A stretch of 48,024 nt of DNA, the filler included, from Jimgerdemannia flammicorona (Eukaryota): NCBI GenBank assembly GCA_003990765.1. It is 2 parts of 2 records of this genome, joined end to end, with 100 filler letters (N's around TTAATTAATTAA, not from the genome) between each part and the next. Parts side by side here need not be neighbours in the genome. Positions count along the whole stretch, not along the records: positions 24,065 to 48,024 come from RBNJ01001041.1; 1 more part is not named here. One strand, written 5' to 3'. Within the stretch, counting starts at the first letter, position 1. Each line of letters opens with the position of its first letter. The translations under genes were made by a program, and so were the position numbers. This document shows positions 6,934-46,700 of this stretch, piece after piece. Below the pieces are notes generated by a model. The model was given only the letters and a program-made list of their open reading frames with translations, made no database searches and had not been told where the DNA came from.

Positions 6934-9250
6934 AGATGGGATGTATGTCGAATGGGCGGTGAAAGGAGATCGAAATGAAGGAATGTGGATGGGCTGAATT
7001 CGAGGTGTAGCTGTAAATTAGGCTACTTGGTACTGAAAACGCAACTAAGAGAAAATGCATGACCCTCGATCGCTGTCAATGGGTTCGTTTATCTCAACAA
7101 GAAATAGCAAACAAAAAAAGACAACAATCCGGCCCGACGGCCATTTGATTGGACCCGCGCGTCAGTATTGCCAATAGCGACCTGTTCGCGCGCCAATCTA
7201 ATGTACCAAAGTCGATGTACACACAGCTGAGCGAGAAAGGCTAAAATGGCCCTCTGGCTTATGTATTCGGGCAGGAACGACAGGATCGTCGCCCTTTGAA
7301 GCTTTAGTTTCCCGGTTAGTGCATTGATCATCCGTGAAAATCGACGCACAATTAGATACTTCATAAGCATGTAGGCCAGTCATGTCATGTATCGATCCTG
7401 ATCTGTATTTTGAGATGTGCCTAAATGATCGACCAACAATTTTCTATTGCGTGCATTGCTTCATGTTCGCCTATAAAAACTCCCGCCACGAACAGAACTC
7501 TAATCCCGTGGTTCTAAGCATTACTGGAGATTTGTGATCCACAGTTTTGTGAATATAAGTATGCAGAAGTGAATTCCTTGTCATTGAGGTTTCTCAAATA
7601 TATACCTCCAAAAAGGGTTCCATATTCAAAAATACTGAGCTGGCAAAGGACTTGACAAACACTAGTCATAGAGTTTTTAACTTTCCACCTGTAAGACGTC
7701 ATGCGCCCAAATCAAGTCAGCAATGTAACCCTATCGTGTGTCCAAAACAACCAGGCAATATAACTAGATAGTAAAGCTGGCAGTCAGGTCACCTGCAAAG
7801 ACAGCAATCTTGAACCTGCACATGGTTCTATGTGTTGAAGAGGCAGACCTTCCTGTCAGAGATATAGACAACTTTTGAATCTGGGGCCCTGTGGCTTGTA
7901 GAGATGATAACTGGTACATTTGCAGTTGGTTCTATAGTGATCTAATCATTGAGTAAGTTGGCAAAGTATGCTATTCTGAAGCTGGTGGTCAAGAGTTGGT
8001 ATTTCTCTATAGCAGTAAAGAAGTCTTTATCTGTATTGAAGAGTTTGTTTCTGGAGATATCAGACTGAGTAAGCTTAGTAACTTCCTTATTGATCTTAAT
8101 AATCTCATGAGTAATAGAGATATACTTCTGTTTATAAGTGTTGAGAATAGAGCAAGAGGTGAGCTTTTATTTAGCCAAGTAGATCTTCTAGATAAAATTG
8201 AAGATATTATCTACTATATTGAGATCTTGGCTAAGTATTAGACTATATATATTATGGTATACAATTTGTAATAGATTGGTTTATTGAATTGTATAGCTCA
8301 ATATACTACTAGTTATTTATATACTATTTATCTCTTTATCTAACAATATTCCTGACTCAATGTTCACTTCAACTACTATTCAATTTGTTTATATATTTCA
8401 AGCTATAGGTCATATAACTGAATATTTAGAATAATAGAAAAGTTAGCAATTATTTTTATAGGTTTTTATATTTCTTGACAGTATTCTGTTATTTCTCAGC
8501 AAGTTAGCAATTATTCTGATATCTTTGATAATTATTTTAATATTCTTGACTGAGTTTCCTAGATCTTATATTTTGAGCTTTATAATAATTTTTCATAATA
8601 ATGATTTTACTGACTGACTTATATATTGGATATATAGTCTTATTTCTTTATATATAGTCTGAGGTCTTGTATCTGATTTATATAATAGTGGATTGTTCTG
8701 GAGTTTCCTAATAAGTTTCCATAGTCTTATATTTGATTTAATTAACTTATATCTTAAATTCCAGAGTCTTGAATTCTGTATTCTTGAATGGTATTTATAT
8801 CTAAATTCTGAGTCTTGTATCCAATTCTCTATAGTAGTGATAGTTTATATCTTAAATTTTATAACAACTTTCAAAGTGGTAGCAAAATAGCAATTGACTT
8901 ATATCTTAAAAAAGTGTGGTCTTAATCTTGATTTTCATAGTAAGAGAAATTCTTCAACTCAAACCTCAAGCAATTATTACTCTAGTTATCTTATTTCTTA
9001 AAATTATTCCATCTCTTAGAGGTAGTGGGTTTCTCTATAATTCTTTTTACTTCAAACTCAAGCTGACTAAAGTTTATTCACTATAGATTAGAGAGTATTT
9101 ATATAACTTTCAGACTAAGAATAAGGCTAAGTAATTAGTTGTAACTTATAATTACTAGAAGATACTATTTTGTATAGTTTTGAAAATCAAGTAACTAACT
9201 GACTAAATAAGACTAATTTTATATTTATGATAAATTTGGCTAGTTAATAA

Positions 9251-9398
9251 GTAGTTACTATTTATACAACTAACTAACTTACTCAAATTTGACTAATTAG
9301 GTAGTCACTATTTGTATAACTAACTAACTTACTCAAATTTGGCTAATATAGATAGTTACTGTTTATACAACTAACTAATTTACTCAAATTTGGCTAAT
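9251..9398. repeat. Three tandem copies of a 50-51 bp unit
   Basis: Unit ~GTAGTTACTATTTATACAACTAACTAACTTACTCAAATTTGGCTAAT starts at 9251, 9301 and 9352. Confidence 0.9.
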
Positions 9399-9399
9399 G

Positions 9400-10260
9400 G
9401 AGCCATCCTCATATAACTTGAAATTCAATATTATATCATCCTTATCTTTCTTTTTATTTTCTTTAGAAAGTCTGGTCAAATTATTTTCTATAATCTCTAT
9501 AGTTATACTGAGATTAGTAAAGAGCTCTGTAGCTAATAAAAGAGAACTTATATACTCCTCCAAAAGGTTGTTAAGATCTTCTTCCCATAAACTAAGTAGT
9601 TTACTCTACTCTGATTCTTAAGATCTCTAATTAATAGTATTATCATCTACAAAGTAGAGTACATATATAGAATTCTGAGAGTAGTGAACTCTTAGAGAGG
9701 GGTCTTAGAACAATACAATCAGATCTTAGAGGAACTAATCTAGATTGTTCTCTAGAATAGAGTTCCAAAAGTCTTGAATCTCATTACTCTTAATTATAAT
9801 AGTAGACTGGGCTTCTTCTATAACCATTTCTTCAAGATGGTCTGTATAGTGGCTTATCAGTTCTTGGATATCTGAAACCTTGATATATTCTAAGTTAGAG
9901 ATAGCCTAGAGTACATATCTGAATATCTGGTAGACTTTCTTAGCCAACTTCTATTTATATCTATTCAGATATATAGTATCTATAATTTCTTAAGAGCTGG
10001 TCTGTAAGAAGTCTTGGCAGAGATGATGTCTCAACTCATATTTTTGCTATATCTAGAATACTTAGTGATAATAGAGATTCTTATTTCTATTTCATAGTAG
10101 TTGAAGATATGTAGTATAGGTCTTTTGTAAAGAGATTCAGACTTGGAGTTCTTCTTGTATACATTCTCATAACCCTTTGATATCAGAGAATATTTGATAT
10201 TAGACTGATGGACTTTGGTGGCTCCTTGATTTTACTATTTAGTAGATAGTAGACATTTTA
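9400..10260 (-). pseudogene. Decayed extra ORF of G1, homologous to the G4 LTR ORF
   Basis: Translates IFSDIKRVMRMYTRRTPSLNL...YELRHHLCQDF...KLAKKVYQIFRYVL*AISNLEYIKVSDIQELISHY...QSTIIIKSNEIQDFWNSILENN. Confidence 0.75.
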
Positions 10261-13200
10261 TTTTGTAATGAGTTTCTTATTTGTGGATAATATCTTGTAC
10301 TCTTTTTTGATGTTTCTTTTATATTCTAAGAGTTTTCTTTTTTGATCCAGAGAGTAGGGTCATCTAATTTAAAGTAGTATACTACTGAGATTACTATAAG
10401 TTACAATAAGTTCAGATGTAAATTATCTTCTGATCAAGATGAGTCATAGTTGAGTCATGATTTGTAACCAGAGGTTTATGAAGTCTAAGTAGTCTCTGAC
10501 TTCTGATGTTATCAGTTTCAAAGATATTATCATATCTGTCTCTTGCAAAATTAGAGCTATTCTTGATAGAGATAATTGTATAGAAATAGCAGGTCTTAGT
10601 TCTTGTTTTTTTTTTAGACTATTGATATATTTATAAGAACTAGCTATTTTTGTCTAAGGTGAGGGCTCTCATTTTTATGGCTAAAGGGGTTCAAATCTCT
10701 CAGAAATGATATTTTCTATAATATGAGGCAATTTCTAGTAGTAACATCTATTATATGGATAGACTTGAGAATGGTTCTAATATTGTTGACTTCTTGAGTT
10801 CTAGATGAAGCATCTATCATTCTCTAATAAAGATGATATAGATGGAGTGAACAGAGTTATTTAAATGTATTTTACTTTTATGAAGTAGTATAGTTTTATA
10901 TAATTGTAGTATATCTTGGTCTTAAGTATAGCTCTATTTAGGGTCTTGAGTTAATAGGTATGGTTTATGAATTTTTGATAAATGAAATAGAGTTCTTTTC
11001 ATTTTGGTTCAAGTTTAGTACTCTAGTTTTCTTCTATAATAATATGGTATACTAAGACTTATTGCTTAATGAGTAGAGGTTCAAGGTCAGCCTTATAGTC
11101 ATAGTACTTCTACTGGTATTCTTATACCTTAGTAATAAATTCTTGTACTTGCTGATATACTTTATATAACCAGATAATCTCTTCAGTAACTCATTTCACC
11201 AAATCTAGCTAGATTGGTTCAGTAGGATCTTACACTTCTTGGCCATATATATACTAAATAGAAAGGAGTCTATTAGGTAGCAGTTACTTTTGAAGTATAG
11301 ATATTAAGTAGAATTGCTAGAAGGTAGATATCATAATTTAATTAATCTCTGATCTTGCTGAGGCCTCACTTGATGGTTTGATTCATTCATTCAGTAAATC
11401 TATTTGCTTATAGGTAATAGGCTATTGTTAGATGTAGTTTGATCTTAAAGTTGGCTATAAAGATCTTCATGGCTTTATTGATAAACTCTCATAATAATTT
11501 TCTTAGAGATATCATAGTGACTGAATATTTTATTATATAAGATCTTAATAATTGTCTGAGCATCAGCAGTCTCAATAGTAAAGACTTCAGGCCATTTTAT
11601 CAGATAATCTTCAATAGTGAGTATATTATTTTCTCTAGCTAGTTACTGACAGAGGGCCAATGATGTCTATTCCTAGTCTTTGAAAGACTCTAGCTGGTGC
11701 TGTAATTAGTATTAGTGGTACTTTATTAGTTGGCTTTTATTGATATCTTTAGTAGATATCATATTATTAAATATATGTTAAAATTTATTTTCTCATTTTT
11801 GGCCACCAATATCTCTTCTTGATTCTTATAATAGTGATTCTAATTTCTCAGTGTATATTCTGATCATAGTTTGTTATGAGTATCTTCTATATTTTATCTT
11901 CTTGTGAGACTCAGGTATATTGGTCTCCTTTTACTCTCTAAAGTTTATTATTATCTTCTTGAAATTTTATGAAATTTTTTTAAATAAATAGCTTATAAGC
12001 TGGCTGAATTTTCTTTTTAAGGCTTCTATAGTATAGACTCTAGATGAGGGCAAGGCACAGTTCTTGATTTATTTAGATAAGTAGAAAGCAGTCATCTCTT
12101 ATAGAGGCTCCTTCTCTTCTTATTGAGTTTGTAGAATTCTTGACAAGGTATCAATGTTAGAGTTCTTGATATCTTTCTTGTAAATAATAGTGAACTGGTA
12201 TTCTTACAGAGATATAATCTATCTGGTAAAGATTCCTAAGGACTCTAGTTTGTTGAATAACTATTATAAAGCTTAGTGATCAGTAATAAGAGCAAATCTC
12301 TTTTGTGTTTAAAGTAATCTATAGCCTATACTACTGTAAGATATTCTAGCTTGATAGCTCTATAGTTTGCTTGTATATCATTAGTAGCTATGCTAGTATA
12401 CTCAATGATATGTTCTTTCTTCTGGTCATCTAGCTGAGATAGAATTGATCCAAGTCTAAGAGTAGAAGCATCAGTTGTCAAGATAAATAGCTTATCAAAA
12501 TCTGATTGCACTAAGATAGGAGCTTCAGTGAGAGCCTTCTTGAATAGATCAAATGACTTCTACTATTCTTCTTTTCAGTAGAATGGTTGGTCTTTCTTGA
12601 AGATATTATATAGTGGAGCTATCTTGTTAGAAAATCTTAGGATGAACTACCAGTAGTAAGATACTAATATGAAGAAGAATAAGACTTTCTTTATAGAGAT
12701 AGAGGTTGGATAGCTTTTGACTTTCTCTATCTTATATGGGTCAGCATAGGTTCTTTGAGCTGAAACTATATATTCTAGATATTTAACTTAGTGTTTTCTA
12801 AAGAAATACTTCTTGGCATTGAGTCTGAGTTCTGAATTTTGGATAATATCAAATACTTCACAGAGGTCTTATAAGTATTGTTCAAATGTTTCTGAGTAGA
12901 TAATTACATTATCTATATATACTAGTACATTTCTTCTAATGAGATCTTGATAGATATAATTCATTATTTGCTGGAATAAGATTGGTATATTGTAGAGTCC
13001 AAATGGTATTTGGAGGTATTTATACTATCCTCATCTAATAATAAAGGCTGTCTTGCAGATATTATTCTTAGTAATAGATATTATTTGGAATTCTTGAAAC
13101 TAATTAGTAGTAGTTATATACTTGGTTTTTCTAAGAATATTGAGAAGGTCATTGATTCTTAGTAGTAAATAAGTATCTTCTATAGTAATCTTATTAAGTT

Positions 13201-15889
13201 TTCTGAAGTCTATAACTAGTCTCCATTCTCCTTTCTTTGGTACTATGTATGATTGCTAGTGAAGTCCAGGGGCTTAATGAGAGTCTAATAACTCTATTTT
13301 ATAGTATTTTATCTATATATTATTATTTAAACTTGATCAGGTGATGTGGTATTCAATAGAGTCATTGTTATATTGGTTTGGCATCTCCTATATATATTGT
13401 ATATTCTCTATATTAATATAGTGAAAAGTTATTATATGTAGTATTAAATATATCTTTATATTTTTCTATCAACTTCTATATCTATTATTACTGATTCTTA
13501 GTTAAAGTTGTCTCAATATCAATAGCTTTGATTACTGAGTCTTACCATTAGTCTCATCAGAGAGAGTTTGCCATTTCTCAAAAATTTAAAAATTTCTTCC
13601 TTGTAGGTACATATCTATCAATAGTTCAAAATATTTCAATATTATTCCTTTGGAAATTATTACTACTTTGAAGTCTAGATTTCAAATAGGAATATGGATT
13701 AGTGACATCTAATTATAGATTTGTTCTTCAGTTAAAAAAAGATAATATTTTTCTTAAAGATTTATTAATAGCTCAAATATCAGATTATTGGTATCTATAG
13801 ATAGGTATATATCAAGGCTTCTTTGTTGATATAGTTGAAGGAGGATATCTTCTCTTACTTGAATAGAATGATAGATATATAGTCTCATTTGATGGAACTA
13901 AGCTACTATTACTAAGTAAACTTTAACAAGTAGTGGTTGAGGAGTTCTATTGGTACTTTCAAATTCTCTATATTCTCTTCTAGTATTGTCTAGTTGATTT
14001 ATCTCTTGAATAGTAGGCTGTGATATCTTGATAAATAGAATTTAACAAATAGTTTTCAAGAGATTGAAGGTTTAGTCTGTTGTAAATAATAACCTTCAGA
14101 GAATCTCAATAATCCTGATCAATGATTCTTCCTTCTACTATAATTCTTTTAACTACTAGAGATGATTTTGATACTAGTTGTCTATAGTGTCCAGATGATA
14201 TAGTAAGTACAATCTTAAGGTCAAAGGTTCTAGTAGTTCTAGGATAGAGCATTGCCTGATAGAGGAGATAGAGGTCATATCCTACTGATTATTCTATTTG
14301 TACAGAGGAGGTTATAATCAAAGTGATAGCAGTTTAACTTAGATAATTAACTGGGTCTTGAGAAATGATACCTCAGTAGTCATTACTACAAAAGAGAACT
14401 CTATATATTCTGGCTTAAATAATGGCTAATATATTTCAGTCTTTGAGTTTCTTGTATAATTGAATTCAGTTCTTCTAAGTAGATCTAAGTCTTCTATAAT
14501 GAAGAAGGCAAGGTTGACTTCTTGTTTACCTTGGTATAGTCAGTAATATCAATAGATGATAATAAGAATTTCTAATAGTAGATCCCAGATAGAGGTCTTG
14601 TTTTTAGCTTTATAGTCTTCTTCATGATTGATTTCTTTATATTTTCAATAGGCCCAGTAAATTCAAAATTTTTGTAAGATGAGATCTCTCCTTTTAACTT
14701 AACTCTTATAGATATTTTCACTAAGGTAGATACTTTGGTACTCACACCAGTAGTAGGTAAAGGTTTTTCCACAATTACAGTATCCTTGTCTGATGAATTT
14801 TTCATTCTGCTGTTTAATCTTCTTATTTATTAGATACCTCTTTTGATATTTATCATAGGTAAGTAGAATGATCTAGAGGACTTGGGTGATGGTATAAGTA
14901 CTGTTATTATTACCTTTGATTGTGAGAGTCTCAAAAGGTTAGTGAGAGAAGATCTTTTGTTCTTCTTTATAGGTCTTCTTGAAAACTTTAGAGATAAATA
15001 GTTATATTCATATAAGGACTGAAACTTATTTTAACTTATCCTTATCTTCAATTACTAGTATTGAAACCTTCTTAAGATTAAGAATTTAACAGTTACTATA
15101 GTTATCTCTTAGTAAGTAGAAATGGTTATAGTGTTTATATATATCTAGGCAGAAGGCTTATATAATTCAGTTTTTCTTCAAAGGTAGTAGTAGTTATATA
15201 AATAGTCCTGTAAATTTACACACTACTTCTTTACTGATAGCCCAATCAATACTTTCTTCTAGGCTTTTAGTATTGATTACTCTAACAAAAAGGTCTTCTT
15301 AACTATCTTTAGAGTCTCTAGGAGTATCAAAATCACTTTCTAGCTCTTGCAGGAAATTTGCTTCACTTTTGTTCTCAGTAGTAGTGAGTATATCTCTATA
15401 TCTTTGTTATTCTATCTTAGAGACTTGACTTGATTTTCTTAATCCTTTTAACTCAATTAGTACCTTGTGCTTTTGTCTATAAAAGGTAAAGACCAGAAGT
15501 TGCTTCTTGATATCTATATTGGCTCCAACTTAGTATAACTAGTTAGTTCTCAGAATTAGATCATAGAAGGTTGCTGGGGTTACAATAGCTTAAGATATAT
15601 TGAGGCAGGCCTTTTCAACTTGAATGGGTATATCTCTGACTAATCCAAGGGGGGTAGATGCTGATCCATCTGCTATAATAACTCTTGCTTTGGTTTCTTC
15701 ATCAATTCTCTATCCAATTCTTTTTAATATTTGCTGAGTGATGATATAAACTACTGCTCTAGTATCAATATGAATTCTGATATTTTCACTATATATTTTT
15801 TTATTAGCTAGTCTTATAGATTGATATTCTTAGCAATAGTATTTATAAACTATATTAATAGTACTAAGCTCTAGTATATACATATATAT

Positions 15890-16070
15890 AATTCCTTACA
15901 AGCAATTTAAAAGATAACAAGATAGTTTAAAGATAAGAAGTTTGAAGACTATAAGACTTTGAGAAGATACTTCAATAAGAACTTACTTATAATAAACTTG
16001 AGTTAGTCTAAGAGATATATCTTGAAGAGAATCTGATATATTTGAAGGACTTAGTAATCACTATGTAACA
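15890..16070 (+). repeat. LTR 3'-end fragment of the G4 family
   Basis: About 180 bp aligns colinearly with 42913-43092 (e.g. AATAAGAACTTACTTATA..AAACTTGAGTTAGTCTAAGAGATATATCTT) and ends in TGTAACA. Confidence 0.8.
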
Positions 16071-16072
16071 TT

Positions 16073-16078
<6 letters not shown>

Positions 16079-16111: not shown

Positions 16112-16160
16112 TTTTTTTTTCTTTTTTTTTTATTTTTTTTCATTTTTTTTTTTTTTTCTT
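16079..16160. repeat. Interrupted poly(T) tract
   Basis: About 80 nt of T with isolated A/C interruptions. Confidence 0.9.
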
Positions 16161-18612: not shown

Positions 18613-20889
18613 TGTGACAGTATAGCCAAATTAGGAAGAAGGAAATAGGGAATAGACACTTGATCGCACCCATTCCTAAAGTAGTATAGCCTTATAGTTA
18701 GCAGTCCTCAATTTCGACATTGTCTAAATTCTTAGACATTGTCTAAATTTTAGACATTATCCAAATCGGATACCCTGATTTAGTATAGCATTTAGACATT
18801 GTCCAAATGTTTCGACAAAGTCCAAATGACTCATTTATTACTTAGCCACCCTCTCATAGCTAGCAAACTTGTATAAATAACCCAGTATCTTCGAGTGAAT
18901 AAACCTCAGATCGAAATAGTTCAAAGCAAAGAGATAGCAAAGGAACTAGTAAGCCTGTGGGCAGATATACTTCGAACTCACCCACCCTCCCCTGCAACTT
19001 CAAGAGACTCTGCGAGAGTCAGAACAGTCAAGTTTTCAAGATACAGAAATCTGACATACTTTCAAGAGTAAGCGCTGCTACATTACAACTTAGTGCCCAT
19101 TGGCTGGTGATTCAAGACAAATTCCTCACTTTCAAGCTGAACAATGAACAACCACTACTATTCGAACAACCATACAAACCAAGCCCCAATACCCAGACAA
19201 GATGGATATGAGACCACCAGTATTCCATGGATATACCTCAGATGAATCAATCATCACCTTCATTGACGATTTCGAGCAGTATGCTGCTGTAAGGACTCTG
19301 ACAGCAGCATAGCAAGTAGCCCTCATGCCCTTCAGCCTACGAGGCCCTGCCAGAGCAGCATTCATAGCTGCAACCCATGCAGGAAATGATGCCAATGCTG
19401 TACTGACAGCACAGAAGACCTGGCTCCGAAATACATATTACACAGATGAGATCAAGCAAGCCCTGAAGGATTAGCTCAATACAACATACCAAGGAATGAG
19501 CGAGGATCCAAACATATTCTATACCAGAATTGATATCAGATAATCCTTGCAGATTATGCTGCTGCTATCCGAGATCAAATAGCTGAAGTAACCTTCATGA
19601 AAGGAGTCCATCCAGAAATAGCCATGGCCATCTGCTCATCACCAGTGATTCTGGATCTGCCACAGAAGGTCACCTATGCTCAGCGATACTGAATAGCCAG
19701 ACACCCACAAGACCATATAATGGAAAGAGTTACAGGAGTCAGAATCGAGGCACCCAAGGCAACCAGTGTGATCCTCACCATAATGATCAATCGAAACACA
19801 CCTCAGCCAAAAGCTACAGAGCAGCAAAAGAACAGTGACCCTATGGAGGAACTTGCCAAAAGGTTTGCTGAAATAACTGCCCACCTGGGAGATGTGGTAA
19901 AGGAAATCTGAAGAAGAGATTGCTGCCCTGTTCAGAAGTTTGCTGCCACCTCAGACAAGAAGAAAGGTACCTACTACAGCTGTGGAGAAGAAGGCCACTA
20001 CTCCTATGAATTAGTGAGTGAAACCAAATGCAAGGCTCAACCAAGCAATACTACATGAAACAAGGAGCAGGCCAATACAATCACCTTTGAAGAAATTGGA
20101 GAATCCGATGAAGAGGAATGGGAGGCCTATCCTGCTCAGACCACCAAGAAGGATGTTTGCAAAGAACCCTACAAGAGACCACCAGGAAGACCCAAGAAGA
20201 ACCCAGTAGAAAAGTGGATGGAAACTGCCACAGAAAGCGAAGCCAAAGAGATGGACCAAGATATCAAGCTGGAGCAAGCAGTTCAAGATATCATCTGAGG
20301 GACCACTCCAGCCAGTGAAGGAGAAAAAGAAAAGAAGCTTCGCAAGACCAAGACCTTCAAGTATAATATCTTCAAGGATCTCAGTCAACAAAAGGTCAAT
20401 GCAACCTTTGGTCAGCTCACAGAAATCCCAATATTCAGACAGCAAATGAGGTTTGGACTTGCTGAAATAACTAAGGAACAAGGATGGAAGATAACTGAGG
20501 CCAATAATATTCAAGAGGACTCAGGAGAAGAAAGTGAGAATTATTGCAAAACCTCTGCTTATGCAACATGCCAAATCAAAGATAGAACCTTTGAAGCCAT
20601 CATTGATATGGGAGCAGGAGGATGTCTCCTCAGTAAGAAGACAGCAGACTGCCTAGGTTGGGATATAGAAGAAGCAACCAAGCTAGTATTCATCACAGCT
20701 GATGGCACAAGAGCCACACCTCTGGGAAAGATCTGAGATGTTCCCATTAAGATCGGAGGAGCAACAATCCTAGTAAATATAATCGTAACCAATGCCACCA
20801 ACTATGACATTCTCATCAGCAATCAATGGCTTCATAAAGCCAAGGCAGTAATCGATCTCAATGCCCAGAAGATGCAAATCACCTACCAG
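18613..20889 (+). mobile_element. G2: 5' part of a Ty3/Gypsy element (LTR 18613-19087, gag, zinc knuckle, protease), interrupted by G3
   Basis: TGTGA...TTACA LTR with TATAAATA and AATAAA. Gag MDMRPPVFHG...FIDDFEQYA starts at 19202, followed by knuckle relic YSCGEEGHYSYE (~19975) and protease FEAIIDMGAGG (ORF 20446-20736). Confidence 0.85.
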
Positions 20890-23800
20890 TGTAAGAGGGT
20901 TACTTTTTAGGGTAACCATTACGTAGTTCTGGAAAGGTTTTCTGGATATTCTGGATGTTCTGGAAGACCGTTTTCTTATGGTCAAGATCAATTTCGTATG
21001 GAGTACATCCTCTACGCTTATTGATTTCAAGATCGGGTTGACGTCTCAACCAAAGTCCTTTTCTGGACTAGTTCTGGATGTTCAGGATTTTCCGTATTTC
21101 AGGAAGTTCAAGAAACTAAGACCAGCTTAGTTGAATTGGCATATTGCTGCAGACAATACCCAATTAGGAAATTTCGTGATGGGGTTAGGAGTAGGACCTA
21201 ACAGGGAGCAGATTTACTTAAGAGTGGTTTGTGGGTTATGGAATAGGTTTATTTGCTATTTATGATATTGCTATACTAGGAGTATTTGTGTGAAGGGATA
21301 TTGTGGGGAAGTGCTCAGGAGTTGTGTTCGGATTGTTCAAGTCTGAGATTCTGAGGTCTGGGAGAGGGGGTATTTATACTAGTGAGGGGCTATCTGGACT
21401 ATGCTAAATATAGATGTAGCACTAAGTGCCTTGCTGAGTCGGAATGCAGTCACGTAGTATAAGTATGATCTGACATGTCAAGAGATCGTCTGACTGCTGA
21501 GTCAGTTCACAGTCACGTCATATAAGGCTAATCTATCTATACTATGACTGCTAGACTATTTATAGGTTTAGACACTGTCTGGGTAGTCTTTGATGACATC
21601 ACCATCGATTGCATCATCTCTGATGAAGTAGTCGTCTAGGAGGAGTGGTTCGCGGATTACTTCTCCTTGTTCACTGAGGTAGTAATATATTGAAACTTCA
21701 TCTCCATCCCACAGGATAGCATCGTCTGTTTCATATGCTGGATAAGGTGTTGGTGGGCAAAGGATGGGTGTATTGTCTTCACTTTCATTGGATTCACTAT
21801 CTGCATACCTTCTATAGGTTATGGCACTATGAGTTGTAGGGTTATAGTATGCTGGTGGCTGTGGTTCGTGTCACTCATACTCGGGTAGTGGAGTGGTTGG
21901 TTCGATCTCGAGGGTTGTCTGAAGGTACAGGTTGTGTTCTCCAGTCTCTTCATTATAATTGAAGTAATCGGGGGTGAATGCGGGTTGGTATTCGTGCCAG
22001 TGATCATTGCCCCAATAAGTCTTGTATGCAGTTATGAACTGTTGTAAGTTCATTGGCAAGGTTGGTAGAGTGATCAGGGTTGGCAGAGATCCTTGGCTAG
22101 AGGTCATGTCGGCGTCAGAGGGATCATTGTCTTCTGCTTCATCTTCATCGAAGTGGATTATATCGTAGACGTCCTTCATGACATATCCAACTTGAGGCAT
22201 TTGCAGGATATGGTCGTCAGGGTGCGGGAAGGTTCTGTCTGTGGTCTGGACATATTCGAGGTACTTGTGGTTGATTTCTTGTATCATGTCATCGATTTGG
22301 CCATAGGACAGGGTAGCAACCATTTCGCTGGTAGTAACTCAGAGGTGGGAAATAAAGGTGTTGTACTCATAGAAGAGTTCTTGATGTTTGTGGGCGATGA
22401 GCTTCTGGTGTTGAGACATCTGGGTAATATCTGTATCATGGTGGTGTTCGACCATGTCTTCCAGGAGGTGGCCAATCTGGTAGTAGCTTGAGATTTGTCC
22501 GATTCGGTGGGCCTCGCTAAGCATGTTCAGGGCGTTCCATCAGGCTTCCACGAAGTAGAGGGGTGCCAGGCTATGGATATTCATGAGGGGCAGAGGGGGT
22601 GTGGCTCGGTTGACAATGGCATTCCAAATGTCAGTGCGGATATGGTTGTAGATCTCGGTGGTCATATTTGTGTGTTTGGAAGTTGTGGTTATTGTTTGTT
22701 TTGGTTTTCTGATTTGATGCGTCTCGGTGCTTGGTATATATGCATTTAGTCCTGATTGGTAAGGTTCCGTTTGTGTAGATCTTGTGTTCCGTGACTTCGT
22801 ATTGACTCAGCTTTATGTGCTGTGACTTCAGTTTGACTCAACTTCGTGATCAAGCAGGTGATTTCCAGGTTTATTCAGAGGTCGCATGTGATTTCAGTGG
22901 CTTGTTCAGAGGGTGACGTGTAATTTCGGTGGCTTGGAGGTTGTGTGCTTACAACTCTCCCCTTCTTAGCTTTCGATGTCCTTGTTGGGGCCTTCTAATT
23001 TGTTCTAGTGTTGTTATACTATTTAGGAGGTCAAAAGTCTGGTAAGGTCCATTTTTCTCAGAAAGTGACATGCTCATAGTACAGTTGCCTAACATGTTGG
23101 ATTTACACGTTAAAGGGTCATATGTTTAATGCCATACACCGGAAGTGATTCTGACGTCATTCACTGCTGGAGAATTTCCTCTAAGGAATCTTCTTAAATG
23201 TCTATACCTCGTTTCCCACCAGTAGTATGGGAAGAATAGGCTTGCTTTCAGTTTTGCTATTTTTCCAGGGATTCAGTAGTCTTGTCTAGTTTTGCTGAGT
23301 TCTCGACTTAGTTCATGATAGTTATAATGTTCAGGAGGGTAATATATAGTATGTATAGATAGGTGCAGAGTTTTTGGTTCTAGTTGTTCAAGGAATCATA
23401 TTCCTGAACTAGGTCAGTAGCATTCTGGAGATTGGTCTTGGGTTCCCAGATTGCATCATGGATCGAGTAACCTTTCCATTTGACAAGGTACTTGAGATGG
23501 TTCTTGTTGCCACATTTGTTGAGGATTTGTTCAACTTCATACTCTTCTTGGTCATTAATAATGACAGGTGCAGGTGGTTTGGTGGTCCGATTTGGAAATA
23601 GCTCATCATTATTGTTATTGTATTGCTTGAGACATTGAACATTAAAGACTGGGTGAATCTTAATGGTATCTGGTAGTGTCAGTTTGTAGGAGGTTGGAGA
23701 GACTCATGCAATGACTTCGAATGGTCCAATGAACTTGCTGTTCAGCTTTGTAGATGGTCTGTGCTTGAGGTTGTCAACTCGGTATCCTCTGATGTCCAGT

Positions 23801-33400: not shown

Positions 33401-33450
33401 AGGACTACCAGAACTAGTCGCTTCCTCATTTAGAAACTAGAACCGTTATA
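27438..33450 (+). mobile_element. G5a: full-length chromovirus-type Ty3/Gypsy element (gag-dUTPase-PR-RT-RNaseH-IN-chromodomain), inactivated by stops
   Basis: 404-bp LTRs at 27438-27841 and 33047-33450; TSD TAGAC/TGGAC; PBS TGGTAGCAGC (27844-27853, initiator tRNA-Met-like); PPT before 33047. Motifs: CFFCHQPGHIATKC, IAPRSGLS..GVIDPDF, LIDSGA, YIDD (ORF 29749-30762), EYEVEKILDK..YLVK. Confidence 0.95.
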
Positions 33451-37600: not shown

Positions 37601-40600
37601 TCTTGAGCTTTGCATAGAGCTTGTTCTTGCAGAGGATCTTGAGGACTTGTTCAATGTGCTTGAGATGTTCTTCTTCAGTACTGCTGAAGATCAGAATGTC
37701 ATCAATATGCACAAGTACAAAGATATAGAGCTGATCCTTGAAGACAGTTTGTATGAGGTCTTGAAAGATTGCTGGTATATTGGTGAGACCAAAGGCCATG
37801 ACTAGAAGTTTGTAGAGTCCAAAGGGTGTCATAAAGGTAGTCTTGGGTATGTCTTCTGGCTTGATTCGAATTTGGTGATACCCAGAGGTGAGATCAATCT
37901 TGGTGAAGTACTTTGCATTCTTGAGAGCATCAAAGATTTGATCTATGAGTGGTAGTGAATAGTGGTTCTTGACTGTGATCTTGTTGAGTGCTTGGTAGTC
38001 TATGCACATTTATAGAGTATCATCCTTTTTCTTGATAAATAGGACTGGGGAGCCAAAGGGTGACTTGCTTGGCTGAATGGCTCCTCACTCAATGAGTTCA
38101 TTGAGTTCCTTCTTGACTGCTTCAATTTCAAGTGGAGACATGTGGTACATTTTCTTCTTAGGTATAGCTGCATCAGGTACCAACTTGATTTCGTAGTCAT
38201 AGTCTCTTGAAGGTGGTAGGCCAGGTAGATTGTCTGGGAAGACATCCTTGTACTTGTTCAGTAGTAACTTGATGCTTTCACTAATCAATAGCTTCTTGTC
38301 TTCTTTCTTTGGTCAGATCAGTGCCACAAAGGCATAGGTAGCTTTCTTGAGGGCCTTCTTGAACTGAATTGCTGAATGGGTAGCAATTGGGGTTCTTGTC
38401 TGAGTCTTGTCTGGCTTGATGGTAATGTTGGCTCCATCCTAAATCAAGGTGACTTCATTCTTGGTCCAATCAATCTGAGGGTTGTGCCATGTAAGCCAGG
38501 GTTTGCCTAGGATCAGGTCATGGTCTCCTAGTGGTGCTACCTCGAAATCTAAACATTCCCAGTACTTCTGGATCTTGAGGGGAAGTTTAGCGGCAATTGA
38601 GTCGATTGGTAAGATGGTGCCATCTGCAGTGACAACTCCAGCTAGTTTGGTGAGAATCTTGAGCTTATCAATGAGATTCTTGTTGATGAAGTTCCCAACA
38701 GCTCCACTGTCTATGAGAACATCTAGTTCTTGTCCCTTGACTAGACCTTTGAAAATGAGTATTGAATTGGCTTGGTTCTCAGTTATGCTTGCAACTTTAT
38801 CAGTACTGCCAAAGCCTTTCTGATCTCGCTTGGTTGAAGATAGCTTGGTGACTTCTTTGATGACTGGTAGGGTGGCTCGCTCCAGAATGAGCTGTGCAAT
38901 TCTATCTCCTTTATTGATAGTATATAGCTGGTTCTTGTGGTTGACTAGCAGGACTTACATTTCACCTTGGAAGTCAGGGTCAATAACTCCAGCATCAACA
39001 TCTAATGAGTGCTTGAAACTGAGGCCAGATCTTGGTGTAATTCTTGCATAATGTTCCTTGGGGATTTCGACTGAAAGACCAGTTGGAATGAGCCTTCTTT
39101 CATGTGCAGGGATAGTGACTTATTGTACTGCTTGAAGGTCCAAACCAATGGCTCCTTCTGACTGTACTTGAGGGATCTGGGCCTTGGGGTTGACTCACAT
39201 GAAATTGAGTACAACTTCTTGTTCAACTGGTTGATCTTGAGTGTCTTTGGACAGGACCAGGATCCTCTTTGGTTCAGCAGTTTTCTTGAGACATTTGATT
39301 GCAATGTGACCAGACTGACAGCAAAAGAAGCAGGCTCCAGCCTTCTTAAGGCACTCTTTTTCCTCAGGTGTAAGCTTGCCTTTCTTGCTCTTACCGATGG
39401 TGTCTAGGTCCATGGGGGCAGGTCCAACAGTTCTGACTTTGGGTTCCTCCCTTCTGTGGTTGTTGTTGTTGAAAGGCGGTCTCTTCTGTTCAAAGTGGTG
39501 ACCATAGGTGATGACATCAAACCTATCAGCAATCTTCATTGCTATATCTAGGTCCTTGGGTTCTTCTAGTTCAACACAAACTCAGGTTTGACCTTTCAGG
39601 CCTCAGATGTACTTGTCAACCTTCTCATCTTCAGTGATATGTGGTAATTCTAGCAGGATTGATAGGAATTGTGCATTATATACCTGCACAGACTTGAGTT
39701 GTTTGACATTTGTCAGATGGTCTCATGTGGCCTTAGTGCTATTGACTGGTTTGAATTGACCTTGAATAGCATCAGAGAATTTGCCCCAGGTCTTGATTCA
39801 GTCAGAGAATCTGGTATTCTGGATATGATTTCACTATCAGATTGCAGCATTCCCTCAGAGGAGTGTGGCAGCAAATTGGACTAGTGTTGTTTCTTCCAAA
39901 TTGGTCAGTTCTCCATATTGCTCCAATTGGAAAAGCCAGGCATTGGTAGACAGTCCTCCTCTTTGACCATCAAAGGTGTTGGGCTTCTGAGGCTTGATAG
40001 TAACTGCTGTTAGATATATTGATGTCAGTAGAGGTGCAGAGGTATGAGTGGGGGCCTTGCTTTCCTTTCTTTCTACATGTTTTTGAAGTTGTGCAATCTG
40101 AGCTAATGTGGTCTGCAAAAGACTCTTGATGGACCCAGTTGACTGGGTGAGGATTGGCTGTTCCTCTTCTTCTTCTTGCTGATGGTACTGATTATATGAG
40201 GTATTGCCTGGACCATAGGTACTGTATGAAGGGTTCTACCTATTGTCCTCCATAGTATTGTGACTGATATCTTGAGAGGTGTCTTGATAAGGCTAGGTGT
40301 AACCACCCACTGTTACTAAGTGTAATGGTTCTAGTTTCTAAATGAGGAAGCGACTAATTCTGGTAGTCCTAAGTAGCTTAAAGAGATACTAAGGATTCAA
40401 GTGTTCTTGAAGGATTTCTGAGAGAAAATATTCTGAGACTTTATTCATGAGAATAAAGGGGATATTTATACAAGATCTGAAAGAAAGATCTGGAAGGATC
40501 TGAGAAATCAAAGGAAAATGCCAAGAGGAAAGTTCTTGGCAAAGATGACAAATGATGATAAATAAAGTTCTACATGTTTCCAGGACATTCAGTGACTAAC

Positions 40601-40722
40601 TAAATAAGTACTAGTTAATGCTCGGCACCAAGAAAGGATTTCTAAGCATTTGGAAAGTACCAGAATGTCATAGAATATTGAAGAAGACAAAGAAAAGAAA
40701 TAAACTATGCTAAAATGTTACA
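34700..40722 (-). mobile_element. G5b: second full-length copy of the G5 family, inverted relative to G5a
   Basis: LTRs at 40321-40722 and 34700-35102; perfect TSD AGACA (34695-34699 and 40723-40727); PPT at 35103-35115. RT ORF 37185-38009 is nearly identical to G5a. Confidence 0.95.
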
Positions 40723-41758
40723 AGACATATGGTTACAGAGCATACACTTTACCTCAAGAGAACTGCTCTACAGAGAAGAAGATTCTGATGGAACCTCAGC
40801 TACAAATCTAGACCTAACTTGGAGATAGGTCAATGTAAAAATCCAGAGACTACACTAAATCAAGAAGAAGGCTGAAGATTACATCATCAAGTTATAAGCA
40901 CTGATAAGGAAAAATGCAGAAAAGAATCACAAAACCCTAGAACCCATCCAAATCAGAAAAAAGGTCCTACTGTATCAAAATATAATAGAAGCCTCATGGT
41001 TATGAAAACTGGAGCCCAAATAGAAAAGACCCTTCTACATATAAGATATCAAGGGAACTATCTTCTGGCTTAGAAAAATCTCAGAGACCATACTGCCTAC
41101 CATGGTATATAGGAACAGACTCAAGAAGTACCATGAACCTATACATATAAGAGAAGCAAAATATAATGACTGCCTGTGAGGTTCTAGTCCATGAATCATA
41201 ATAGCATGTCTCATGACCAGCAGGCTATCTATCTGGACCATTCTCTAAGGAATACAATACCAGCAACTACTCATTCATAAGACTTTCAAAGCCAGAGAAG
41301 TTCAAACTATCAACTGATTGGTCAATATCAGAATAAGGCCCTTGCTCTATATGAAGAGAGTAATCCTTCACTATTATGCCAAAATATAAAGAGAAGATGT
41401 TAGTCTATAAATACCACTTTTCAACCCCTTGCCAGAGGTTATGGGATTAGCAAATTTTTCAGAACTAGACCAATGAATAAGGATATTTAAGAAGATCCTT
41501 ATTCAGGAGGAAGATATAACAGTGATCTCAGAATAATGACATCAACACAAGAGACAGCCTTTTCTTGCAAGCCACCAGATCAGAGCACAAAAAGATCATA
41601 TGGCATACAAGATGAGCAATGATGACTAACTATGAGTTATTGTGACCACAGTATAAGTATCTTGAGGAATATAAAAGAAGGATCAAGAAACTGCAGTAGC
41701 AGTAACCAACAAGACCCACTAATCCCAAAATAGCTCAAAGACTTACCATAAATGAAAT

Positions 41759-42616
41759 GCCTACTGCTCACCAAACCTCAAGGTCAAGGAACTACAAGAC
41801 ACCTCAGTTGAAGAAAGAATATTCCAAGACATCAGAAGAGTCATGAGGACCCACTCAAGAAGGACTCCTAGTATCAATCTGGGTACTGGTGACTCTTATT
41901 ATTATATCCTCTACTACTGTAAAATGAAAACAAGGATCACCATTACTACTGAATACCTCCAAATGTGACAGGAGTATGAGATAGGAAATCTTCTCTGCCA
42001 GGAGTTCCCACTGACCAGTACTTAAGAGCTACAAGATACCATTCCTATGGATATATGCAAAATAAGGACAGCTAAGAAGATCTATCAGATTATCAGGCAT
42101 ACACCATAGTCAATTCCTAACTTGGAGTATGTTAAAGTCTCAGACTTCAGAGACCTGTTAGCTCACTATATCAATGCACTAGAAGCCAGGGTGGCTATAG
42201 AAGTCCAGTCTACTATCACTCTCAATAGTGATGAAGTAGAAGACTTCTGGCATCCCATTCTCCAGAACAACCCAGACCAATTCATATAAGGATTGATCTC
42301 AGTATTCTAAGGTTCAAGCATCCAAGTTAGACCTCTCTAAGACCCCACATTTGTCCCCTATTTTGTAGAAGAGAACCTCATAGACTAGAGAGCCCCAGAT
42401 CTCCTTGTTCTCACTACTGCTGAATGTGATGATGTCATTGGCAATGATGTCATCCCATGTGACATATGCGAGACACATGATATATATGAGATGCACAACA
42501 TATATGAAATATGTAATCTATATGACAACAGTGAATTTGTGGACCTCATCTCCTTCAAAGATATTCTGATCTCTGATGAGAATGAAGTTCCTATGGTCTT
42601 GAACATTCTGCTCTAA
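41759..42616 (+). pseudogene. Decayed extra ORF (>=286 codons) in the putative G4 3' LTR
   Basis: A single frame with scattered stops: IFQDIRRVMRTHSRRTPSINL...YEIGNLLCQEF...IRTAKKIYQIIRHTP*SIPNLEYVKVSDFRDLLAHY...QSTITLNSDEVEDFWHPILQNN, with an acidic C-terminus. Confidence 0.75.
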
Positions 42617-43769
42617 AAGTTCTTTGGTTTCACTGAATTATGCCAGTACTGGTATTCTGATATAATACTGAATTATTCCAGTACCATTTTTCTATATCAC
42701 CAAAATTATACCAGTATTCTGAACCTGTACAACCATCAGTGCTGATCCTGGAACTTAGCAGTTTTTCCTGTCCTGGCATTTTATTTTAGTTATTGGAATT
42801 TATATTTAGTTTTATATCTTAGCAACTATTGAATTATATTTTGTATAAATACTCCTCTTATTTCCTCTGAAATAAAGTCAGTCCACTCAGTCTACTTAGT
42901 ACAATATATACACTTCCTTGCAAGCAATCTAAGAGATAATAAGACAGTTTAAAAATAAGAAGTTTGAGGACTATAAGATCTTGGAAAGGCACTCCAATAA
43001 GAACTTACTTATAACAAACTTGAGTTAGTCTAAGAGATATATCTTAAAGAGAATCTAACAAATTTGAAGGACTCAGCAACTACTATATAATACTATATAT
43101 ATTACTTATATGAAGAATATACTACTATTATTATTAGTTTTAGCAATATTTACATTATTATACTTCTCTTTATTATATCTATACTGGCTTTTTCTATATT
43201 TATTTTTACTGTTTTCTTATCTTTATTATTCTCTCTATAATAATAATAGTACTTTCTATATCTATACTTATTATAGTATTTACAGTAACTATCAAACTTA
43301 ATTAATTTGCTATTATTGTATTAATTTTAAGTTTAAGTTTATTGGTCTTATAGTTACTATCTACACTATTAATTCTGCTTGCTACTATGTCTGCAAGATC
43401 TATAGAATATATTTTCATCATCTTTAGCACTATTTCCTTGATATATTTTCTCATTCATGAGATATATTATTATATGAGTATAGTTTATAAGCTTACTGCT
43501 CTCATATATGACTATAATGATAATATTATATACTTTCAAGAGATCTTTTATAAGTACTAAGACCTTATCTTTATTGTTCATACAATCTATAGATATACTG
43601 AGAAAATTTACTTTATTTACCAAATCATCAACATGATCAGTATACTTATAGATATACTTATTAGATTTTATTTAAAGATTGAATAGCTAAGATTTCAGAT
43701 GAAATCTATTTAATATAAAAGTCTTTATATGTATAATGATTTCATAATACTTTCCATATCTTATAGGTT

Positions 43770-46700
43770 TATTGTGAAATACTGGAATTTGAGGGATAAA
43801 GGAGCAATCTTTATTGATATGCGCGAAGCACGTATTTATGCATTGATGACGTTTCCACTGATGACGTCCTCACACGTGAGCTGCGCCACCTTCACATGAG
43901 CTACATACTGAGTTGATTAGCTAGAAATCTCAACACTCCCGCTCAACGAGATATGTACTCAAACTGCAGAAATGCATGCTAACTAACTAATGAATACAAT
44001 GCAGGAAATGATAGGTAGAATGGGTGCTATCTATCAACCTAAAAATGTCCGAATTCCCTGCTTCTAAGCACTAAAATAGGTAGAATACGTAGTAGAAAGG
44101 GTGCGCTAGGAACTGATAAACAGTCTGAATGTCCGAAATGGATGTCCGCTTGAAATGTTTACTTGCTTGCTTGCAAATAGAAATGCAGTACGGATGTGCA
44201 ATGTTCATAGAGGATGTAAGATGTATATGTTAGAGGCTTTTCGCTGTTAGGAAAGTCTCGTGATTTGCGTCGATTATTGTTGTTGTTGGTGGTCCCTGAA
44301 TCCTGGCCATAGCGTAGGGTTGCTCGTAAGACACATCCCTTGCACGCAGTGTTCGAATTTTGGCCTCGGAAGGGCCTTCGTAAGAGAATCCGCCGTCATA
44401 GACTCCGTTGGCGTATATTCCAGGCGTATAGTACCGTTTTCCATGCATTCGCGTATATAATGATGTTGAATGTCGATATGCTTAGTCCTTGCATGATGTA
44501 TAGGGTTCTTTGCTAATGCAATCGTAGATTGATTATTCTGTAAGATCAGCGTAGAGTCTCATTCCTGAGTATACCCTAATTCCTTTAGTAATTTCCGTAG
44601 CCATACGGCTTCCTTAGTTGCTGTGGACAACGCTTGATATTCCGCTTGCGTAGAGGATGTGGCCACCGATGATTGCTTACGTGTTTGCCACGAGATAACC
44701 CCTTTGCCGATATGGAAGAGATATCCGGTCGTAGAGCGCCGGTCGTTGAGGTCGCCAGCCCAATCGGCGTCGCAAGCTCCGGAGACACACACGTGACTCC
44801 CGCTTTGTCTTTTTTCACCACCCAAACTGAGCGTATAGTCCGCTGTTCCTTTGATGTACCTGAATATGCGCTTAATTACCGTCCAATGTGAGTTGTCATA
44901 GCATGAGGCGTACTGCGCCACTTTGTTTACTGCATAGGAGATGTCTGGTCGCATTTCTTGCATAAGATACATAAGGGATCCCACCACTTGTCTATAGGGG
45001 ATGTTCTTGTTGGGCATAGGGTCACTTTTCCTTAGCCTCATTGTAGTTTCCATTGGCATCGCCACTGGCTTACAATCGCTCATCCTGAATTGTTCAAGTA
45101 CTTGCTTAGCGTAGGTGGCTTGGGATAGGTGTATAGCGTGCTCGTTTCTGTCACGTGTAATCGCTATCCCCAATAAGAAAGACGCGTTGCCTAAGTCCGT
45201 CATCTCGAATTCCTGGTGTAGCGTAGCTTTTACTTCGTTAACTTGGCTCCTCTTGCCAACGATTATGATGTCATCGACCCATATCCCCAAGTATACCGTT
45301 CCTGAGGATGTATGTCGCGTATATATGCATGGATCCGCTTTGCACCGCCGAAATCCGTTGTCAAGCAGATATTGATCGATCTTCCGATTCCATAGTCTCG
45401 CCGCTTGCTTGATTCTGTATAACCCTTTACGTAGTTTGCATACGAGCTCTTTCCGCCCGTCGTATAGTTCGTATCCTTGCAGCTGTTGGATGTATAGTTC
45501 CGTATCTACGTCACCGTTCAGGAATGCAGTCTTAACGTCCATCTGCTGTATTTCGTAATCGTACTCGGCGCCGATAGCCAGTAGTATGCATAGAGAAGTG
45601 AGCTTGAATACGGGAGAGAATGTCTCGTCGTAGTCTACACCGTAATCCTGTGAATATCCCTTAGCAACAAAGCGTGCCTTGTACTGCTCTACGCTTCCAT
45701 TGCTTTGACGCTTAACTTTATATACCCAACGAGATCCTATAGCTTGACGATCCCTCGGAAGAGGTACTAGATCCCAAGTACCGTTGCTGATGAGCGAATT
45801 ATACTCTTCATCCATCGCTCGCTTCCACTCCTTGCTATCAGGGGAGAATACAGCTTCGTCATATGATCGTGGATCCACCATTGTCAAGTATGCGCACTCG
45901 CAAGCGTAGTTCATGTGATGCTTGCGTCGGGTCTTCGGAACATTCCAATAGTCTCCTAGATCCGTATCCAATGTCCTGGATTTGCGCTTTTGTTTACCTT
46001 TCGTAGATGGGAGAATCGTCTCTGCTTCGCTAGTCTCGTCATCGCTATCCCTTATCTCAGTTATCCTCGGTCCAGGAGGTGGCGAAGGAATCCTCGCCAG
46101 GATAGGTGACATTTTCGGGGGTGTCTTCAGGGGTGTGACCGGAGGACTCGCCGGAGGCGTAGTACTGGCCGCCGGAGGCGTAAGGTTGATTGCCGGAGGC
46201 GTTCCTGGAAGCATATGTGTAATTGTAGTCATCTTCTCGATATTCACGTGTGAATCCTGTATGCCGGGTTCCCTGAATGTAACGTCACGGGAGTTAACAA
46301 TTCTCCGCTTCCTTGGATTCCACAGCCTATACGCTTTGCAACCATTGCTATACCCGAGGAACACATGCTTAGTAGCCTTTGGATCAAACTTATCCTTATT
46401 TCCGCTTTTATCTAGCATGTAGGCTTCGCTTCCGAATATGCGTAGATGTGAGATATTGGGCCGATTTCCACTCCATAGCTGATGTGGCATAGCATTATTC
46501 TCGTTCCTGGATTGCTGATCGTTGCCACAAGCATCCTTGCTTAGAGCTCGAGAAATACACCTATTGCGTATATACACTGCTGTATTCACCGCTTCGGTCC
46601 AAAAGGGCTTCGATAGATCGGCCACGTTGAGCATTGTACGGGCCATCTCTACTACTGTTCGGTTAAAACGCTCCACTACGCCGTTCTGCTGAGGCGTATA

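Follow-up and report, generated by a model that had tools for sequence, protein, structure and literature searches.

A decayed accessory gene of Ty3/Gypsy retrotransposons in Jimgerdemannia flammicorona, likely placed in the U3 of a long terminal repeat

Within a 48,024-nucleotide stretch of the Jimgerdemannia flammicorona genome (assembly GCA_003990765.1; hereafter the window, two parts joined end to end, the second, from position 24,065 onward, belonging to RBNJ01001041.1), we find what is likely a decayed accessory gene of the Ty3/Gypsy group of retrotransposons, situated in the unique 3' region (U3) of a long terminal repeat (LTR) and having its own TATA box and possibly a separate mRNA. 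Three Gypsy elements of the window, designated G1, G3 and G4, carry the open reading frame (ORF) on the same strand as pol and at an identical position after integrase. Judged from their sequences, a single protein-coding gene underlies the ORFs of G4 and G1, both of them decayed. All three copies are dead: G4 and G1 have many stops and frameshifts, and G3 has three in-frame TGA codons. Coordinates of all features are collected in Table 1.

An original prediction, made by reading the window unaided, held that the regions downstream of the polypurine tract in G4 and G1 encode alignable peptides. Both blastn and protein alignment confirm this similarity, and the peptides that were quoted are all present in the sequence; the N-terminal G1 peptide ‘IFSDIK|RVMRMY...’ spans two frames across a frameshift. 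At the nucleotide level, 41667-42391 aligns with 10326-9624 at 64% identity over 728 columns (E = 7e-71). Translated in the best frame, the two copies align over 142 codons without gaps, 45% of the residues being identical and 69% positive (121 bits), while the second frame yields 57 bits and the third nothing. Differences between the copies are unevenly spread over codon positions 1, 2 and 3 (53, 35 and 71, respectively; chi-square p = 0.002). A profile of 12 family sequences (A5) matches G1 at 10058-9417 with an independent E-value of 1e-49. The ends of the ORFs also agree with those of intact proteins described below: the G4 N-terminus, MPTAHQTSRSRNY.. from the ATG at 41757, matches the start of the full-length relative P0009, MPAARQTSRSRNHQ.., and the G4 C-terminus, ..VLNILL*, agrees with the family end, G4-type proteins finishing ..LNFLL or ..LNILL. 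The G1 ORF closes with ..DGSISQI*, which is the end of the intact relative P0012.

Between G1 and G4 the accessory ORF (64% of nucleotides, 45% of amino acids) is better conserved than reverse transcriptase (RT) and integrase (58% and 37%), RT alone standing at 58% in DNA and 37% in protein. G2, another Gypsy element of the window, is closer to G4 in its protease (60% of amino acids), yet is without the ORF. This hints that lineages may have exchanged the LTR gene or lost it.

Outside the window, the gene has relatives that are not decayed. We searched a three-row profile against 1.84 billion representative proteins at E ≤ 0.001 and obtained six matches. One was an ankyrin-repeat false positive, and the other five, at E 5e-99 to 1e-4, are true relatives. 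A word-based search with the relative P0001 returned seven further candidates that are relatives out of 382. Contig L001, which encodes a 291-aa ORF with a protein 42% identical, was the sole locus from a metagenome scan with a narrowed alignment, and none of 73 pattern matches in a scan of viral contigs proved to be a relative. In total, there are 13 metagenome-protein relatives, none with internal stops. All derive from metagenome data of JGI or ENA and sit on contigs 0.8-4.8 kb long, 4848 nt in the case of P0004 and 2375 nt in that of P0007; where the source names them, they are called ‘hypothetical protein’. P0009 is full-length at 271 aa, and the family includes a G1-type member, P0012, and a G3-type member, P0014, that are separate from the G4-type proteins. 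The 13 stop-free relatives support the proposal that the ORF represents a conserved accessory protein family of these Gypsy elements, and they argue that the accessory gene is real, belongs to a previously unnamed protein family and survives intact in environmental sequence data.

Comparison with these relatives accounts for much of the decay. The G4 ORF is 72% identical to the intact P0001, and because Q or W stands in P0001 opposite all seven of its in-frame stops, we read the stops as transition damage. A search of sequencing runs matched one soil-metagenome DNA run (X1), with 0.08 of sampled words, and returned no RNA runs containing family sequence. On window positions 40723-43130, run X1 provides 1937 short contigs of the element family, with summed depths of hundreds to thousands, and most of these contigs carry fewer mutations than the copy in the window. 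They supply the extra base at the frame shift after 41794 in 58.1 of 119.2 contig depth (eight contigs). Sites with A or T in the window and G or C in these contigs outnumber the reverse (A>G 47 and T>C 66 vs C>T 34 and G>A 23), and the base 3' of the inferred C is A at 15, C at 13, T at 8 and G at 1 of 37 sites, these being all the A>G and T>C changes among the 40 best-supported of 178 variant sites. This bias of the window copy from G/C to A/T, together with its 3' base context, points to transition hypermutation that is not of the CpG type. Five stop codons stand at identical positions in G4 and G1, and they are best read as parallel hits, since transition hypermutation would have acted on conserved Q and W codons. 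We rejected an altered genetic code, with TAA and TAG read as Q, as a source of the common stops: read with the standard code, the pol of a neighboring Copia-type element stays open over 1154 codons, and some of the common stops face W, not Q.

G3 carries a more distant member of the family. The three-row profile gave no match to G3, and the A5 profile, run in hmmsearch, matched it at 22626-22267 with an independent E-value of 0.0054, the sole match below 0.1 besides G1 and G4. By hhalign, G3 aligns with the family over 129 columns with a score of 35.5 (E = 3.8e-4), compared with 14.2±2.1 for 60 shuffled sequences (maximum 18.8) and 13.2 for the reversed sequence. The alignment pairs YYQIGHLLED with EYEIGNLLC, LIAHKHQELF with VVKKIHQVFRH and ISHL*V with IPNLEYV, which are the motifs from which a weak likeness of G3 had been suggested by eye; with the profile match also significant, that likeness is real. 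G3 has an intact relative in P0014, with 65% identity across 69% of the query, and both proteins end in YPDS(V/I). That a copy as diverged as G3 has an intact relative of its own suggests that the family is old and diverse.

The elements that carry the ORF, G1, G3 and G4, are Ty3/Gypsy (Metaviridae) by their pol genes, in which protease is followed by RT, RNase H and, at the C-terminus, integrase. Pfam identifies RVT_1 in G4 (E = 2e-26), RVT_1 and RT_RNaseH_2 in G1, and SH3_Tf2-1 and Chromo in G3, and tblastn of the three pol sequences against two complete Gypsy elements of the window, A and B, gives colinear matches. In G4, protease and RT are separated by a dUTPase domain at 26077-26400(+) (Pfam E = 3e-19), and tblastn finds matching stretches in G1 at 14300-14028(-) and in element A at 28970-29299(+).

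G3 is the least mutated copy and provides the best evidence on whether the ORF is part of an LTR. Throughout the 3' region of G3 (2.5 kb after pol, on the minus strand), AAGAAGGGGAGAG-T-TGTAAGC at 22953 is the sole candidate for a polypurine tract followed by TG. The LTR finishes ..CCCTCTTACA at 20890, a perfect 6-nt inverted terminus as read from the sequence, and this end coincides with the break of G2-G4 protease homology at 20886-20890. The polypurine tract and TGTAAG, together with CTTACA at 20890, delimit a 2064-bp LTR that encloses the entire ORF. A location in U3, downstream of the polypurine tract, is very probable in G3 and probable in G4 and G1. The description of the ORF as LTR-borne, which was part of the original prediction, is thus well supported for G3 and only probable for G4 and G1.

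G4 offers three candidates for the LTR start, at 41398, 41515 and 41641, and all of them are upstream of the ORF. The purine tract and TATAAC at 41505-41520, and a purine tract and TATGATA at about 10534 in G1, had been proposed as the starts; they are present, and they are not the sole candidates. Read by eye, the sequence from 41515 pairs imperfectly, as an inverted repeat, with the end of the LTR (T[A]TAACA..GTGAT vs the reverse complement TGTTACATAGTGAT). The motif at 41638..41658 resembles the LTR start of G3 (TGTAAGCACAC) as well as TGTAACTTATAG at 10405 in G1 and TATTGTGACAGTATA at 18610-18624 in G2. Summed contig depth in run X1 is 191-558 at the integrase end, 892-1636 at 41583-41754 and 1381-2251 at 42787-43044, with a step across 41411-41754 (426, 548, 892 and 1636). 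This rise would place the ORF region in the LTR, and it is suggestive only, because depth is not copy number. The downstream boundary is firmer. The G4 LTR end is 85% identical to a second copy at 15882-16077, near-identical with transitions ignored (42914-43096 vs 15892-16074), and the similarity stops near 43092 at the same place as in the second copy, which ends ..TGTAACA. Contig cover in run X1 is zero past ~43130, and together these results support the predicted end of the element near 43092. The isolated second copy begins about 25 nt past the position matching AATAAA and differs from G4 almost only by transitions.

Of the elements in the window, G2 is the one most closely related to G4. 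Its 5' LTR region gives no profile match, and from the start motif to the second TATA it contains no ORF. The original prediction had named short LTRs that exclude the ORF, in relatives of G4, as evidence against it, and G2 is partly such a case. G2 shows that elements can do without the ORF; it does not show the ORF to be outside the LTR.

Several observations weigh against an LTR location. No second LTR of G1, G3 or G4 was found in the window, even with transitions ignored, so no boundary is confirmed by pairing, and the single LTR of G3, for all its polypurine tract and TGTAAG...CTTACA termini, has no partner for a comparison of target-site duplications. The exact LTR start is ambiguous in G4 and G1. 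The candidate at 41641 best fits the depth step and the G3 start, but has no adjacent polypurine tract; a transition-tolerant alignment of the G2 and G4 start motifs scored 32.5 against a shuffle mean of 36.4; and the supposed ‘mutated TGT’ start is unverified, site 41516 being absent among the 40 best-supported variant sites. In contig L001, GGAGGGAGGAT and then TGTAATAAG, a textbook polypurine tract plus TGT, directly follow the ORF stop, there is no TG at the place matching 41515, and the ORF may be internal in that lineage. With G2 lacking the ORF, the L001 arrangement suggests that the gene is optional and that its placement may differ between lineages. One could go further and see in all copies a third ORF of the ordinary internal kind, with pol before it and the true polypurine tract and 3' LTR after it, the LTRs being short (a few hundred bp) and the upstream purine tracts coincidental. 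Besides the tract and TGTAAT that follow the ORF in L001, the short LTR region of G2 without the ORF would fit, as would the isolated copy at 15882-16077, which comprises only the last ~190 nt, and the count of LTR pairs in the window that contain the ORF, which is zero; internal extra ORFs are also far commoner in general than ORFs within LTRs. We nevertheless regard an internal ORF as rather unlikely. The polypurine tract and TGTAAG of G3 stand upstream of the ORF and pair with CTTACA, which stands at an element end fixed on independent grounds, so that the ORF is not in the internal, env-like position in G3, while in L001 it possibly is. Between the ORF stop and the downstream TATA box, neither G3 nor G4 has a candidate for a polypurine tract plus TG. 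Depth over parts of the ORF region reaches 1448-1636 vs at most 558 at the integrase end, and none of 2424 candidates was a longer or fused form, which is weak evidence.

Two other readings concern the nature of the sequence itself. A captured host gene, hitch-hiking in a long LTR or 3' region with no role for the element, would be consistent with a protein that has no known retroelement domain and with G2 and elements A and B managing without the gene. It is very unlikely, as no cellular homologue was found among the 1.84 billion representatives, where the relatives are solely metagenomic and on short contigs, as the position and promoter layout are kept across lineages with RT only ~37% identical, and as intact G1-, G3- and G4-type versions all persist. 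Hardly credible is the reading that there is no gene at all and that conserved non-coding U3 sequence gives rise to alignable peptides. The five stops at identical positions in G4 and G1 might speak for it, but intact relatives have Q or W there, the 13 relatives are free of stops, and the similarity is frame-specific with the codon-position pattern of coding sequence.

The accessory gene in the LTR, which we favor, would entail two transcription units per LTR. The gene lies 3' of pol and, being downstream of the polypurine tract, would fall within the U3 of an LTR whose length is exceptional (2064 bp in G3, about 1.45-1.7 kb in G4). A first TATA box (TATA-1) would drive the ORF. The decamer TATAAAAGAA occurs upstream of the ATG in G4, G1 and L001 (80 nt in the last), and G3 has TATATA at 75 nt, each of the four DNA copies having a TATA at a distance of 67-87 nt before the ATG. 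Downstream of the ORF are a second TATA (TATA-2), TATAAATA in G4, G1 and G2, and AATAAA, whose spacing is 25 nt in G1 (9103 and 9078) and 26 nt in G2 (18872 and 18898); in G3, TATAAATA is at 21378 and AATAAA at 21253. From AATAAA to the LTR end there are about 190-220 nt. The ORF mRNA, of about 1.2 kb, would end at the LTR poly(A) site, and the genomic RNA would start after TATA-2. Between the ORF and TATA-2, the G4 spacer is variable, and metagenome contig depth has its minimum at 42443-42700 (1.6-47); the three tandem repeats of G1 stand at the equivalent position. The corresponding part of the G3 LTR, at 21430-21530(-), has a two-fold repeat with GACTCAGCA and ACGTGACTG, which we take to look like AP-1/CRE-type sites. 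In L001, a 33-nt motif (GTCAGGCGGAAC...CAGAACA.AAG) is found on both sides of the ORF, at 170-202 and 1481-1513 (82% identical), and its upstream copy lines up with the G4 purine tract at 41505. The repeat does not extend into a colinear LTR-like duplication, and the motif may be a regulatory site.

We also assessed the protein for clues to its function. Family members are 270-365 aa long, and tails contain the conserved hydrophobic motifs DLIxF and VLNFL. In the G4-type member P0009, net charge per 45 residues runs +8, -4, -1, -7, -5, -12 and 0, making the first 45 residues basic and the tail acidic. The core, of about 150 residues, is predicted to be helical: an AlphaFold model is helical over residues 18-184 and also shows a small hairpin and an acidic tail that is disordered, with a mean predicted local distance difference test score (pLDDT) of only 50.7. 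The original prediction could assign no known domain, and this is borne out. Pfam gave nothing significant for G4, for G1 or for any of the 12 family members, and a sequence profile search of PDB gave no matches at E ≤ 10. Foldseek, given the model at mean pLDDT 50.7, gave none against PDB at E ≤ 0.001; the best Z in a wide VIA-align search was 4.5, with none of 48161 chains at Z ≥ 5; and ESM Atlas offered no usable match (scores ≤ 0.86). The blanks in the structure searches are not evidence of a new fold.

Nuclear transcriptional activators typically combine a basic N-terminus with an acidic tail that contains bulky hydrophobic residues. By analogy, we tentatively favor a nuclear regulator that switches on transcription from the LTR of the element itself, perhaps by way of the repeats that precede TATA-2, a possibility rather than a probability. 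A bolder version, and a doubtful one, is that each LTR, solo LTRs included, could be a gene cassette of promoter, ORF and poly(A) signal whose protein acts in trans on the LTR promoters of the family. The accessory protein may instead serve elsewhere, as an RNA-binding or export factor or as a suppressor of host repeat-silencing or hypermutation, an option we consider unlikely but worth weighing. The N-terminus has an arginine-rich RRAMRTRTRR, and DLISF and VLNFLL can be seen as a leucine-rich C-terminal motif; the window copies are also heavily hit by C-to-T and G-to-A changes, a load implying that such a defense exists in the host. These motif readings are tentative, and no result separates such a factor from a transactivator.

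Retroviruses furnish the closest parallels to a regulator in the LTR. The sag gene of mouse mammary tumor virus (MMTV) and lentiviral nef are located in or overlap the U3 of the LTR. Like them, the ORF described here is downstream of the polypurine tract inside U3 in G3, probably in G4 and G1 and doubtfully in L001, and an ORF so placed would be copied to both LTRs, as with sag and nef. It differs in showing no similarity of sequence or fold in the Pfam, PDB and Foldseek searches above, in having a putative TATA box of its own, and in being carried by a Ty3/Gypsy element without env. Foamy-virus Tas (Bel1) is an accessory gene 3' of pol with an internal promoter, an acidic C-terminal tail and positive feedback on the LTR. 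The ORF shares the position 3' of pol and the acidic tail, its TATA-1 may mark a separate promoter, and LTR feedback is the model that we would favor by analogy; homology to Tas was not detected, and in the present case the LTR seems to contain the gene in full rather than its end alone.

Among retrotransposons, dUTPase domains are reported for fungal Gypsy elements in PMC2864245, where the legend to Figure 3 also lists fungal elements with an ‘add. ORF’ of unknown function, and extra ORFs of plant and rotifer Gypsy elements are mentioned in PMC9289625 and PMC5408684. The extra ORFs are alike as additional Ty3/Gypsy ORFs, and as far as these descriptions go they are drawn as internal; some overlap between our family and the ORFs of PMC2864245 is possible. 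PMC8365987 cites brtn (Zhao et al. 2011), an additional gene of the Boty-like (BcGypsy1) elements of Botrytis cinerea. It is likewise an accessory gene of a fungal Gypsy element, and its description in that citation sets it apart, brtn being antisense by title and the ORF lying on the sense strand in G1, G3 and G4. Judging by titles and abstracts, literature searches on ORFs within LTRs and on additional ORFs of fungal Gypsy elements turned up no account of the present gene, which is not proof that none has been published.

Accessory genes are a hallmark of complex retroviruses, and LTR retrotransposons are usually taken to consist of gag and pol only. What our comparisons add is a protein family, without a Pfam or structural relative, of a retrotransposon accessory gene with a putative promoter of its own. 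A conserved LTR gene in diverged Gypsy lineages, with intact versions in the environment, would make a tractable case for the study of retrotransposon self-regulation or the countering of silencing. If the LTR location is true, solo LTRs can stay protein-coding. If the trans-acting cassette is true, non-retroviral retrotransposons have evolved a regulatory gene in the style of complex retroviruses, one whose dosage scales with LTR copy number and which lineages gain, lose or exchange. Repeat masking would hide the family from genome annotation, and the profile search found just its five true relatives among the representatives.

Table 1. Features of the window, with coordinates counted along its full length
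Feature	Coordinates	Strand	Remarks
G4 accessory ORF	41757..42616	+	~286 aa if intact; 7 in-frame stops; one-base gap after 41794
G1 accessory ORF	9384..10256	-	heavily mutated; frameshifts; many stops
G3 ORF	22665-21568	-	365 aa/codons; 3 in-frame TGA; wholly inside G3 LTR
G3 3' LTR	20890..22953	-	2064 bp, TGTAAG to CTTACA
G3 polypurine tract	22954..22967	-	AAGAAGGGGAGAG(T), directly before LTR start
G4 LTR start candidate 41398	41398		AAAGAGAAGA then TGTTAG; from purine-tract/TG scan
G4 LTR start candidate 41515	41505..41520	+	purine tract AGGAGGAAGA then TATAAC; start in the original prediction
G4 alternative start motif	41638..41658	+	TATTGTGACCACAGTATA, TGTGAC at 41641, TGTGACCACAG; read by eye
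G4 LTR end	42898..43092	+	putative unique 5' region (U5), ~190 nt; ends ..TATAATA
Isolated second copy of G4-type LTR end	15882..16077	+	T run 16078-16171 (~95 nt) directly after
G2 5' LTR region without ORF	18613..19087	+	start-like motif, short tandem repeats, TATA-2, AATAAA, end ..CATTACA; boundaries inferred
G4 TATA-1	41670..41679	+	TATAAAAGAA; 87 nt upstream of ATG; putative core promoter
G1 TATA-1	10314..10323	-	TATAAAAGAA; 67 nt upstream of ATG
G4 TATA-2 and AATAAA	42844..42876	+	TATAAATA, AATAAA 27 nt later; putative genomic-RNA promoter and poly(A) signal
G4 variable spacer, ORF stop to TATA-2	42617..42843	+	short direct repeats (CTGAATTAT.CCAGTAC)
G1 tandem repeats	9232..9398	-	three ~51-bp copies, from last ORF codons, upstream of TATA-2
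G1 RT and RNase H	13237-12404	-	
G1 integrase end	near 10840	-	
G2 gag and protease	~19000-20889	+	
G3 integrase SH3 and chromodomain	23964-23380	-	
G4, in three pieces	25380-27437, 33453-34697, 40723-43092	+	split by nested elements A and B
Element A, complete Gypsy	27438-33452	+	nested in G4
Element B, complete Gypsy	34698-40722	-	nested in G4
LINE-like element	1-3590	+	
LINE fragment	25355-24348	-	same kind as at 1-3590
Copia-type pol, intact	44559-48023	-	open 1154 codons to the window’s end

The arrangement of these elements was mapped by self-comparison of the window and protein searches. G1 is truncated upstream at ~15800, where by eye a protease-like stretch alone is left. Beyond its integrase domains G3 extends 2.5 kb further, its 3' sequence reaching 20890, and its insertion interrupts the protease coding region of G2 at 20889/20890, the remainder of G2 being outside the window. 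Between the G3 integrase and the fragment of a long interspersed nuclear element (LINE) are two runs of N, 44 bases each, at 23965-24008 and 24021-24064. The LINE fragment truncates the 5' side of G4 at about 25380. Elements A and B, which are inserted in opposite orientations, are 90% identical and have 404-bp LTRs; self-comparison and the profile search of the window did not find the accessory ORF in either.

The two LINE-like sequences are strongly G-rich on the sense strand (GC skew ~0.45), and A-rich tails of the (AAAAAG)n kind occur nearby at 3469-3588 and 4477-4566. The Copia-type pol contains zf-CCHC, integrase and RVT_2 domains, and the element may be active. At 5000-8000, the GC content is 50-54% with ORFs on both strands, and this stretch may be a host gene.

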